From assembly GCF_024223415.1 (NCBI RefSeq), contig NZ_CP100500.1: DNA of 64,000 nt; one strand, 5' to 3'. The notes beneath the pieces were generated by a model, which saw only the letters and a program-made list of their open reading frames with translations, searched no databases and was not told the DNA's origin. Positions 52,915 through 56,636 of this stretch are shown piece by piece (the stretch's first letter is position 1; every line of letters begins with the position of its first letter). Both the position numbers and the translations under genes were made by a program. Origin of the DNA: Escherichia coli. GTDB taxonomy: Bacteria; Pseudomonadota; Gammaproteobacteria; Enterobacterales; Enterobacteriaceae.

Positions 52915-53254
52915 CTAAATTTCCAGGCTCGTGCTCACGGCCTGCTTCATATCCGCGCCAGGTCCGTCGCGATTAAACCACAGGGCTTTTCAGGAGGGGC
53001 CACAGAGAGCGTCACACTGACCATTCCCTGTGGCTTGTGCTGAGATCCGGTCAGTGAAATTGTGCAAAGGGAATCTTCGGGAGCTTTGGGCAGAATGTCA
53101 GTTATTGATGTTGACATCCTCCACACCCTGAAGGTCGGGGTTTTACGGCGCACTGGATAAAATACCTGAACAAACAGCCTCTTCGTGCGGCTTTTTTATA
53201 ACGAGATTCTGACTTGCTGCCGTCCGTAATGTCGGATGGCGGAGGTGAGGGACT

Positions 53255-53527
53255 ATGAGAATGGACGAACGATACAGTAACGCTGCATACGGCAGCGCAG
53301 GACTTGTTGCGTTCTTTGCCAGCCTGTCACTGCAGGATTGGGGATTTATTATCGGCGTGGCGTTCAGTATCATTCTTGGCGTTCTTACTTATCGCCTTAA
53401 CAAACGGGAGCAGGAAAAACGAACCCGCATATTGCTCGAAATTCTGGAACGAACTAATGCCGGTAATGTTCCGGCTACGGCACATGCTGTGGCTGAGATT
53501 GCGAAAAAGGCACCAAAAGAAATATGA
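53255..53527 (+). CDS. Pinholin (phage 21 S-like) with dual-start motif
   Basis: Starts M-R-M; pattern AYGSAG...W...IGV...LTYRLNKREQEKR resembles S21-type pinholin; precedes SAR endolysin. Confidence 0.6.
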   Translation: MRMDERYSNAAYGSAGLVAFFASLSLQDWGFIIGVAFSIILGVLTYRLNKREQEKRTRILLEILERTNAGNVPATAHAVAEIAKKAPKEI

Positions 53528-53683
53528 CGAATATCCCGGGAGTGAGGGGATAATATACCTTTTAACAAAATCCGGGAACATGAAACGCCCGGAACGTTTC
53601 ATGAGGCATGCCCCGTGGGGAGCAGGGCATAACTGTGCGGAATAGCTTTCATTGTGATATCAATAATCACGGTATTCAAAATA

Positions 53684-54061
53684 TTACGGGCCTGTGGGAT
53701 CAGGTTGTTTTTTGTCTGATTCCAGAGGGAAGGGACGCTGTTTCGGTTCTCTGAACTTTAGTGATAATGAATTGAAAATCCTCATTTTTTGCTGCCATGC
53801 ATAATGTCTGTCCCATGAACAGGGGGGGCTCAATTCTTCATTCACCCATGCGTTAATATCTTGTTTCAGGTGTTGAAGCATACGGGGTGTTAATGCACTC
53901 ATAATAATATCCAGCGTTTTATGCGAGAGTTTACCGTAAGGGTCTGCAAGGATGCTGCTCGTTGCTTCGTTATTATCCACCATAAGTGGAAGTAGCGCTG
54001 ATTTAACTTTTTCTGTCATTAGTTGCAAAAATCTACTGCGCAAATTTTCTTTACTGTTCAT
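53684..54061 (-). CDS. Hypothetical protein on opposite strand inside the lysis cassette
   Basis: 125-aa ORF in the 655-bp gap between pinholin and endolysin. Confidence 0.35.
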   Translation of the reverse strand: MNSKENLRSRFLQLMTEKVKSALLPLMVDNNEATSSILADPYGKLSHKTLDIIMSALTPRMLQHLKQDINAWVNEELSPPCSWDRHYAWQQKMRIFNSLSLKFREPKQRPFPLESDKKQPDPTGP

Positions 54062-54184
54062 TTCTGAAGCCTCATCTGTTGTCGTTTGGTTTTCCTGAAC
54101 GGGTATGTTTATGAGACATGCTGGTACTGGATTATATACCTGATATATCCAGGGTTATAAACCTTTAGATCCTGATAAATATAC

Positions 54185-54718
54185 ATGAACGCAAAAATCA
54201 GATACGGCCTGTCGGCTGCCGTTCTGGCGCTGATTGGTGCTGGCGCATCTGCTCCTCAGATACTTGATCAGTTTCTGGACGAAAAAGAGGGTAACCACAC
54301 AACGGCATACCGCGATGGGTCCGGCATCTGGACCATCTGTCGGGGTGCCACGATGGTGGATGGAAAACCCGTTTTTCCCGGAATGAAGCTGTCGAAGGAA
54401 AAATGCGACCAGGTTAACGCTATTGAACGTGATAAGGCACTGGCATGGGTGGAGCGCAATATTAAAGTACCTCTGACCGAACCACAGAAAGCGGGTATTG
54501 CGTCATTCTGTCCCTATAACATTGGCCCCGGTAAGTGTTTCCCGTCGACGTTTTATAAGCGGCTTAATGCCGGTGATCGAAAAGGCGCCTGCGAGGCGAT
54601 TCGCTGGTGGATAAAGGATGGTGGGCGCGATTGCCGCATACGTTCAAATAACTGCTATGGACAGGTTATTCGTCGTGACCAGGAAAGCGCATTAGCCTGT
54701 TGGGGGATAGATCAGTGA
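54185..54718 (+). CDS. SAR endolysin (phage lysozyme, R21 type)
   Basis: 177 aa; N-terminal Gly/Ala-rich SAR segment [17 protein letters not shown]; catalytic E-x8-D-x5-T in [16 protein letters not shown]. Confidence 0.85.
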
Positions 54719-55182
54719 GCAGAGTCGCCGCGATTATTTATGCTCTGGTTATCTGCATCATCGTCTGCCTGTCGTGGGCGGTCAATCATTACCGTGATAA
54801 CGCCATCGCCTACAAAGAACAGCGAGATAAAAAAGTCAGTGAGCTGAAGCAGGCGACCGCCACCATTACTGACATGCAGCAACGCCAGCGTGCTGCTGAT
54901 GTACTCGATGCTAAATACACGAAGGAGTTAGCTGATGCGAAAGCTAAAAATGATGCTCTTCGGCGCAAGCTTGATAATGGTGGCAGGGTGCTCGTCAAAG
55001 GAAAATGCCCTGTGCCATCCTCAGCCGAAACCTCCAGCGCCTCCGGCATGGGCAATGATGCCACCGTCGAACTCTCTCCAGTTGCTGGACGAAACGTTCT
55101 CGGTGTCCGGGACGGAATTATCCGCGACCAAACAGCACTGAGAACGCTTCAGGAATACATCAGGACGCAATGCCTTCGATGA
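54700..55182 (+). CDS. Rz i-spanin
   Basis: N-terminal TM ([19 protein letters not shown]) then coiled coil; overlaps endolysin stop; exact start uncertain. Confidence 0.75.
54935..55141 (+). CDS. Rz1 o-spanin lipoprotein embedded in Rz
   Basis: +1-frame ORF inside Rz; lipobox VAGC; proline-rich [11 protein letters not shown]. Confidence 0.7.
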
Positions 55183-55688: not shown

Positions 55689-56309
55689 CCATTACAAAGC
55701 CTATCTACGGGTGGGCTTGATAATGAAACCAGAATTTATTCTGGGAAACCAGTTACGGCAGTACAGCGAAACAACCCAAGCCAGTAAGTGGGGAAATAAC
55801 ACTGGCAGCCACTGAAAGATGAACCTCCTGCCTTATGGCAAAAAAGATTCTTTGTGGTGGCGGACTGATGGAAAGACATCGGTTATTGCAGAGACCATTC
55901 AATGAGTGGTCTCGACAATGGCTTATACCCTACACGGGATAACTTAACTGATATCCCTTTTAACGGATAAAGGTATTCAAGCCTGACATATCATGCGCTG
56001 TATCGTCGCCGTATTCCCGTATTAACAGAGACCGTAGCCCGACGGGGAACTCCTTCTGCGCGAGTGTGCGGGAATAATCAAAAACGATGCACACCGGGTT
56101 TTTACCGCGTTTATGGTTCGCGGGTTTGTCCCTCATGCTCGCCAGTCCGGTGCGATGGTGGAAGAAACCGGAAGCTGTATTACAGAAAGTGCTACTACTG
56201 TATCCTGATGCGATGTATGTAATGTGAGTCAGATAATGGCACAGGATGTGGTGATGTGGCAGTCTGGAACACAGGATATATTGTCAGAATAAGACCCGTA
56301 GGAATAAAA

Positions 56310-56636
56310 ATGAAAAGACGCCTTTCACTACTTTTTCTGTTATCTGCCCTGGCAGTGGGATGCTCGCAGCAAAAAGCTGATGAGCCCCGGCAATTAGTGA
56401 CGGTGTATCCACGATATCCGGAATATGCTGCAGCAAATTATATCAAGGGGCTGGTTGAGGTTAAGTTCGATATTGGTGCTGACGGGACTGTGACACGGAT
56501 CGTTTTTCTCCGCTCAGAGCCTCATAATTTGTTTCGTGATGAAGTGGTGAAGGCCATGGCGAAATGGAGATTTGAAAAGAATAGTCCCCGTCAGGGAGTG
56601 AAGAGACAATTTATCTTTACGCCATCACGTCCCTGA
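56310..56636 (+). CDS. Lipoprotein with TonB C-terminal-like domain (moron candidate)
   Basis: ATG at 56310: MKRRLSLLFLLSALAVGCSQQ...; C-terminal YPRYPEYAAANYIKGLVEVKFDIGADGTVTRIVFLRSEPHNLFRDEVVKAMAKWRFE fits TonB_C pattern. Confidence 0.6.
   Translation: MKRRLSLLFLLSALAVGCSQQKADEPRQLVTVYPRYPEYAAANYIKGLVEVKFDIGADGTVTRIVFLRSEPHNLFRDEVVKAMAKWRFEKNSPRQGVKRQFIFTPSRP

Follow-up and report, generated by a model that had tools for sequence, protein, structure and literature searches.

Why should the holin and endolysin genes of a prophage be held apart by a gene that faces the other way? The question is raised by a 64,000-nucleotide stretch of an Escherichia coli genome (NCBI RefSeq assembly GCF_024223415.1, contig NZ_CP100500.1), here called the window. 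Its lambdoid-prophage lysis cassette, delimited by open reading frame (ORF) listing and direct reading, occupies positions 53255-55182. The holin gene (53255-53527, plus strand) and the signal-arrest-release (SAR) endolysin gene (54185-54718, plus strand) are separated by a 657-bp gap (53528-54184) that contains a minus-strand ORF of 125 aa (53684-54061), which we call RevL. An earlier note on this DNA had described these three ORFs, and all lie where it had placed them; it had suggested that the insert was a moron, a regulator of lysis timing or non-coding filler. We consider it probable that this is a lambdoid lysis cassette with the residue of an accessory module, in which RevL is a genuine gene and most likely an independently transcribed moron rather than a core lysis component. 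The best explanation for the gap is that it is what remains of a recurrent accessory module occupying the front slot of such cassettes. As far as sequence can tell, the rest of the cassette is a functional-looking set of pinholin-type holin, SAR endolysin and spanins, and the orphan gene that interrupts it is recurrent, codes for protein and faces the other way.

RevL is a genuine protein-coding gene that belongs to an orphan enterobacterial family and is under purifying selection. It matches phrog_1853, a family of unknown function (E-value 4.8e-41), with residues 1-102 aligned to positions 57-158 of the 159-position profile; the N-terminal 56 positions of the profile are not represented in the RevL subfamily. 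Homologues are few, all are named "hypothetical protein", and the intact ones share 48-80% aa identity. Pairwise Nei-Gojobori comparisons among the RevL copies of the window, O157, Shiga toxin (Stx) 2a phages and phage 86 gave dN/dS values of 0.11-0.32. An AlphaFold2 model built from 8 sequences has five helices (pLDDT 89.6, pTM 0.79). Since the conservation is specific to codon phase and the fold is confident, selection acts on the RevL protein, and non-coding filler is excluded for the family. The protein is basic (pI ~9.4) and its hydropathy profile has no hydrophobic segment; it is predicted to be small, soluble and cytoplasmic, with a five-helix fold. A conserved plus-strand ORF beneath RevL was considered and rejected, there being none of at least 50 aa in the ORF listing.

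The homology and structure searches that the earlier note had proposed for the 125-aa ORF matched it to phrog_1853 and, with Foldseek against AFDB50, to members of its own family only, from E. coli, Shigella and Salmonella. A profile search retrieved 20 clusters from 1.84 billion representative proteins. RevL has no match in Pfam, NCBIfam or PADLOC, no PDB relative by sequence profile, no Foldseek hit in BFVD, and no likeness to known antiholins or lysis inhibitors. Literature searches recovered work on pinholins and SAR endolysins in Stx phages (PMC8136144, PMC10462455) and nothing on the reverse ORF. Database entries for it nonetheless exist, under the name of hypothetical protein (phage 86 orf6, phrog_1853). 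There is also a consequence for annotation: the true length of the family is 104-106 aa, while the Prokaryotic Genome Annotation Pipeline (PGAP) often calls a 90-aa version. In O157 strain 644-PT8, for example, RevL is annotated by PGAP as 90 aa, yet the full 104-codon frame is intact.

What accounts for the greater length of RevL in the window? Alignment of homologues gives a normal length of 104-106 aa, with a C-terminus ending in KFR. The window copy has 125 aa because the stop codon at 53747-53749, which now reads GAA, has been lost, and read-through adds 21 aa. Residues 1-104 (53750-54061) form a core with no internal stop that is 79-80% identical to the O157-type protein, and residues 105-125 (53684-53749) form the tail. 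The insert with its minus-strand ORF is present, as the earlier note had it, and measures 657 bp, but a protein of 125 aa is not the norm for the family.

Comparison with related loci (labelled below by L-numbers) shows that the window cassette is a recombinant of three pieces: an HP1/P21-like holin gene, an orphan spacer of 220 bp, and a block of RevL, endolysin gene R and spanin gene Rz of the type found in prophages of enterohaemorrhagic E. coli (EHEC). At the left joint, the match to relatives that have this type of holin goes precisely as far as the stop codon of the holin gene and no further. In these relatives the R21-type lysozyme gene follows the holin gene directly, with an ATGA overlap, which bears out the expectation that pinholin and SAR endolysin genes are usually adjacent; the insert is absent from L005 and L006, which are of this holin type, and from most phages with the same lysozyme. 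At the right joint, homology to the EHEC-type block begins at ~53745-53751, the normal position of the RevL stop. The left joint removed the RevL stop codon and added the 21 aa.

The spacer between the joints (53528-53746) is ~220 bp long, and its last 63 bp are read as the C-terminal extension of RevL. It has no homologue outside this prophage lineage among the phages, the 5426 complete E. coli genomes (the set to which all E. coli counts refer) and the other RevL loci searched. The only E. coli genomes that contain it are the 19 of 5426 with the full three-part arrangement, and an exact 25-mer from it was found in one viral contig, of the same lineage. The possibility that the spacer is a remnant of a partner gene or of the original lysozyme gene was rejected: neither blastn nor tblastx revealed any similarity, and the holin homology ends at the stop codon. 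It has no Rfam match. GC content is 34-44% across 53600-54200; the genes for the holin, the endolysin and Rz have 50-56%.

RevL is not confined to this recombinant. Of the 5426 E. coli genomes, 688 (~12.7%) contain the gene and its upstream region (53751-54172) at ~80% identity, among them many O157:H7, O111, O145 and O103 strains. The rarity implied by the earlier note does not hold, as this is the share of complete E. coli genomes that have this reverse ORF upstream of the lysozyme gene. Only four records of isolated phages contain RevL, and all four are Stx2 phages. Among 80 IMG/VR loci examined, RevL is in reverse orientation in every one, and wherever both flanks were detected it lies between the holin gene and the R21-type lysozyme gene. 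In O157 strain 644-PT8 the class II holin gene comes first, then the reverse ORF, the lysozyme gene and Rz.

A fuller arrangement is found in Stx2 phage 86 and several Stx2a phages: the holin gene S, a same-strand gene X, RevL convergent with X, then R, in some cases ant, and Rz. Gene X is phrog_1085, which encodes 213-268 aa in these phages and is also present in 29 of the 80 IMG/VR loci. In more distant members of the family, RevL, with or without X, is found just 5' of the holin gene, which is of the P21 type in L092, the HP1 type in L008 and the lambda-S type in L009 and L010. Some loci keep only a 65-aa stub of X, and the window lacks the gene altogether. From these arrangements we infer that what recurs at the front of lysis cassettes is a module of X and RevL in convergent orientation, from which X is frequently lost while RevL is kept.

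The product of gene X is unrelated to RevL in sequence. In phage 86 it has an N-terminal DUF1327/YdfR domain; searches with the partner family found DUF1327 alone, in that one member, no PDB relative, and a PADLOC match at chance level only (0.056). Across members (L002 4349-5023, L003 3792-4598, L004 3827-4468, L009 1710-2264, L092 5338-5895) a C-terminal motif, IGRCMGYLQLAAEIE...PPFKK...YLKGR, is conserved and the N-terminus is variable. The gene often overlaps RevL by 20-30 bp. A convergent pair of this kind invites a toxin-antitoxin reading, which we rejected because lineages without the partner keep RevL under purifying selection: dN/dS is 0.18 between two RevL lineages that both lack phrog_1085.

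How might RevL be expressed? RevL and the endolysin gene diverge from an intergenic region (54062-54184) whose minus strand has a GAGG motif (54070-54073), 8 nt 5' of the ATG of RevL, and, at 54131-54136, a perfect TATAAT. This -10 element is conserved in the window, in O157 and in the L002/L062 lineages despite divergence of the surrounding sequence. Downstream of RevL, the spacer contains two hairpins, at 53579-53603 (9-bp stem) and 53608-53630, that could serve as a terminator. We propose that RevL is transcribed from its own minus-strand promoter at this TATAAT, antisense to the Q-dependent late transcript, and that its transcript would end at the spacer hairpins. Expression would be expected mainly in the lysogen, because RevL is antisense to the late operon, which is silent there. 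On induction, Q-antiterminated transcription would read through the insert and lysis would proceed as in phage 21, with the holin depolarising the membrane, the SAR endolysin being released and refolding, and the spanins fusing the membranes. RevL itself would act by binding a host or phage partner and would have no structural role in the lysis machinery.

Of the three identities that the earlier note had offered, a moron fits best: the insert has low GC, faces the opposite way, is present in some related phages and absent from others, has a conserved -10 element, and is coding under purifying selection. Several observations weigh against this interpretation. The -35 region of RevL is poor on manual inspection, and a simple sigma-70 consensus scan of the minus strand found no full site. 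Promoter architecture is not uniform across the family, since phage 86-type lineages lack the TATAAT and have a hairpin and T-run upstream of RevL instead. The spacer hairpins are not followed by a clear T-tract, and their folding z-scores against shuffled controls (-1.8 and -1.2) are not significant. The window copy has a stop-loss tail and a PGAP pseudogene call, and two sister genomes have a frameshift in the G7 homopolymer; for these reasons it may be decaying. Lastly, the invariant placement of RevL in lysis cassettes could reflect a lysis-related role rather than that of a generic moron.

The hairpin of the phage 86-type lineages is itself conserved. In L003 (3383-3467), L004, L009 and L010, a GC-rich stem followed by a T-run (CGCCAGYGG...CACTGGCGTTTT) lies just upstream of RevL in the sense orientation, and it looks like a terminator or attenuator.

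Could invariant placement mean that RevL is a dedicated regulator of lysis by pinholin and SAR endolysin, binding the holin tail or the unreleased endolysin, or setting the ratio of S to R? Such a role would account for its staying within lysis cassettes. It is reversed in all 80 viral loci and directly divergent from a lysis gene, mostly R, and from the holin gene or an HNH-holin pair in L008, L009, L010 and L092. It persists beside S21-like, HP1-like and lambda-S-like holins, and selection on it outlasts loss of the partner. However, a gene opposed to the late transcript would be poorly expressed just when the lysis genes are on, most cassettes with the same types of S and R work without RevL, and the protein resembles no known antiholin or lysis inhibitor and has no membrane segment. 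Furthermore, a conserved position would also result from homologous recombination in S and R, the conserved genes on either side, and such recombination may be what has fixed it. We therefore regard a dedicated regulator as unlikely. A broader proposal, that RevL, with or without phrog_1085, is a lysogen-expressed factor tied to pinholin/SAR-endolysin cassettes, either as a cytoplasmic guard against lysis that comes too early or is set off by a foreign phage (an anti-lysis or superinfection-exclusion protein) or as a new prophage-encoded regulator in EHEC, seems to us equally doubtful. Doubtful to a greater degree is the idea that the RNA, or the act of transcription, is what matters, through head-on interference or antisense RNA to the S-R late transcript that damps leaky lysis in lysogens, in the manner of lambda paQ/oop. 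The unit is antisense to the late operon with its 3' end toward the holin gene, it overlaps the 3' end of the partner by 20-30 bp where the partner is present, and no strong terminator follows the RevL ORF. Against this stand the dN/dS values and the confident fold, which show selection on the protein, and the lack of any Rfam match or significant RNA structure.

An alternative explanation for the window copy, whatever the family does elsewhere, is that RevL here is a decaying pseudogene with a functional lysis gene on either side. It has a PGAP pseudogene call ("missing C-terminus"), being marked incomplete in all five of the sister genomes inspected and frameshifted in two. Its stop codon has been replaced by a non-homologous tail of 21 aa, its partner gene has been lost, and its left flank is a recombination scar. 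The frameshifts fall in a homopolymer at 53822-53828 (G7, or C7 on the coding strand, in RevL codons S78-P79-P80-C81). The tract is G7 in the window, L001, L099 and L100 and G6 in L097 and L098 (strains Ch1 and F1022), and the G6 alleles truncate RevL at 92 aa. Nevertheless, nothing disrupts the 104-codon core, RevL keeps its ribosome-binding site and -10 box, a helical bundle need not lose function through a C-terminal tail, and the G6 alleles could be homopolymer sequencing errors. Phase variation or decay could also underlie them, and in this lineage the G7 tract could make RevL phase-variable. The earlier note had said that its reading would fail if the insert were a degraded remnant of a known gene. 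This is true in part: the insert is a remnant of the phrog_1085/phrog_1853 module, has lost a stop codon and is called a pseudogene, but the core of RevL remains whole. Decay of RevL in the window seems improbable to us, and we continue to favour the reading of RevL as an accessory gene with its own promoter.

The holin that precedes the insert is a class II protein of 90 aa with two transmembrane domains (TMDs) and the start M1-R2-M3. Two overlapping motifs resembling Shine-Dalgarno (SD) sequences can be read upstream at 53241-53251 (plus strand): GGAGG (53241-53245) lies 9 nt 5' of the first ATG (53255) and GAGGG (53247-53251) lies 9 nt 5' of the ATG of M3 (53261). The dual start described in the earlier note is thus accompanied by a motif at equal spacing before each ATG, and holin homologues in phage PhiR46_1 and a phage-plasmid (L005, L006) start with M-K-M. 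The protein matches phrog_1350, a holin family (3e-29). Its likeness to the pinholin of phage 21 is only partial. The two are related (BLASTP, 38% identity over 53 aa spanning both TMDs, E = 3e-5), but the best Pfam match is the HP1 family PF16080 Phage_holin_2_3 (1.7e-4) and the match to the P21 S family PF04971 Phage_holin_2_1 is weaker (1.2e-3). In hydropathy, TMD1 (aa ~10-27) is weakly hydrophobic and rich in Gly, Ala and Ser (KD15 to 1.5), TMD2 (aa ~29-46) is strongly hydrophobic (KD15 to 2.6), and the C-terminal tail is charged and, at 44 aa, longer than that of S21.

The profile matches, the S21 alignment, the hydropathy, the paired SD motifs and ATGs and the M-K-M homologues together make a dual-start class II holin a well-supported prediction, and the inferred topology of two TMDs with both termini inside the cell fits that class. 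The two starts probably produce an antiholin/holin pair, with the antiholin having the extra positive charge. It is reasonable to suppose from the pairing with a SAR endolysin that the holin is a pinholin, and the weakly hydrophobic TMD1 is compatible with a putative SAR domain that leaves the membrane and with small heptameric pinholes.

The endolysin (177 aa) is an R21-type GH24 lysozyme that matches phrog_7 (7e-64). Both features attributed to it by the earlier note, a Gly/Ala-rich SAR anchor and an E-D-T triad, can be identified: the residues E35, D44 and T50, with E-8-D-5-T spacing read from the translation, align with those of R21. Structural matches are to phage 21 R (3HDE, 5.7e-17; 3HDF, 7e-16) and to RrrD (4ZPU, 1.1e-16), and the alignment to the R21 structures starts at residue 9 and so includes the SAR region. 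The N-terminus (aa ~6-27) is Gly/Ala-rich with KD15 hydropathy of 1.2-1.9 and is predicted to be a weakly hydrophobic SAR segment. There is no clear Shine-Dalgarno sequence in 54150-54184, or at the equivalent positions in L002 and L007, that is, in any of the lineages split by RevL that we looked at.

The spanin genes follow. The Rz i-spanin gene (54715-55182, plus strand; phrog_13, 1.7e-71) has a GTG start that overlaps the endolysin stop codon (GTGA), and in L001 PGAP annotates a "lysis protein" at the matching coordinates. In the +1 frame within Rz, an ORF at 54935-55141 (plus strand) encodes a lipobox (LIMVAG|C) and a mature part rich in proline; from the known Rz/Rz1 architecture we take it to be the Rz1 o-spanin. 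Farther 3', an ORF at 56256-56636 (plus strand, 126 aa) has a lipoprotein-like signal (LSALAVGC) and conflicting annotations: it matches phrog_1267, "Rz-like spanin" (2.6e-40), and is a "TonB family protein" according to PGAP in a sister genome.

In the window as a whole, replication genes are followed by an HNH/DUF968-type gene, a gene for a Q-like antiterminator (50365-50802), a reversed porin gene, two tRNA genes (52686-52839) and the lysis cassette, after which come the terminase and portal genes. Over 53150-54800 the window shares 98.3-99.7% identity with 19 of the 5426 E. coli genomes, mostly from poultry isolates. The porin gene, between the Q antiterminator gene and the tRNA genes (50981-52087, minus strand), is OmpC/NmpC-like (phrog_410, 1.7e-137) and constitutes a second reversed moron of the same late operon. 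It has an in-frame TAA at 52013-52015 directly after the signal peptide (MKNLTVALSAVAASVFLATSSNAA, the stop, then IYNKD...), so it is probably a pseudogene or expressed by reinitiation only. The tRNA genes just 5' of the holin gene are for tRNA-Met(CAT) and tRNA-Lys(TTT), the first being called tRNA-Ile by PGAP in a sister genome; a degenerate third tRNA-like stretch at 52842-52914 (19.8 bits, E = 0.61) is below the Rfam threshold. One of the 19 sister genomes has an annotated frameshift in the lysozyme gene (L099 1036-1577, E. coli TUM9803), and an IS66 element cuts the large terminase gene in L001; several copies of this prophage are therefore defective.

What would a role for RevL mean? According to surveys, almost all Stx phages have predicted pinholins and R21-like SAR endolysins (PMC8136144, PMC10462455), and cassettes of this kind control the release of phage and toxin from EHEC. 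About one in eight E. coli genomes, many O157:H7, O111, O145 and O103 strains among them, have RevL inside such a cassette. If it affects the timing of lysis, the stability of the prophage or superinfection, then it bears on toxin release. If it has no such effect, it is one more uncharacterised moron.

The closest known counterparts of the window cassette are in Stx2 phage 86, where the homologue is orf6 (Stx2-86_gp06, YP_794053), and in prophages of EHEC O157, O111 and O145, with 48-80% aa identity to RevL. As in the window, these ORFs are reverse-oriented, directly upstream of the R21-type lysozyme gene and divergent from it. In contrast to the window copy, they have the normal stop and a length of 104-106 aa, and they lie behind an S21-type pinholin gene; in phage 86, RevL is convergent with a phrog_1085/DUF1327 gene. 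The window cassette is set apart by its different holin, the lack of a partner gene, the orphan spacer and the read-through tail. With the S21/R21/Rz cassette of phage 21 it shares a two-TMD holin with dual start, a SAR endolysin with an E-D-T triad and embedded Rz/Rz1 genes. However, S and R overlap (ATGA) in phage 21, as they do in L005 and L006, and are 657 bp apart in the window, and the window holin, a distant relative of S21, matches the HP1 holin family best in Pfam and has a charged tail of 44 aa.

By analogy, the insert would be of an ordinary kind, comparable to lambda bor among late-region morons; the moron concept is treated in an earlier article (PMC3594210). Both bor and RevL are small accessory genes beside the lysis genes that oppose late transcription, have atypical composition and are present in some phages and absent from others. 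The product of bor is an outer-membrane lipoprotein that provides serum resistance, encoded downstream of Rz and expressed in the lysogen, whereas RevL is a predicted cytoplasmic helical protein encoded between S and R. A second parallel is the Qin prophage of E. coli K-12, in which the slot between S and R (essQ-rrrQ) holds ydfR, a DUF1327 gene. That gene occupies the same slot as RevL, but it is on the strand of the lysis genes and unrelated in sequence. Its domain, DUF1327, is the N-terminus of the phage 86 gene that is convergent with RevL; the window has no DUF1327 gene. YdfR is reported to bind RNase E's catalytic domain as well as RNA (PMC13232886). RevL, phrog_1085 and ydfR make the slot at the front of lambdoid lysis cassettes a site where accessory cargo recurs.

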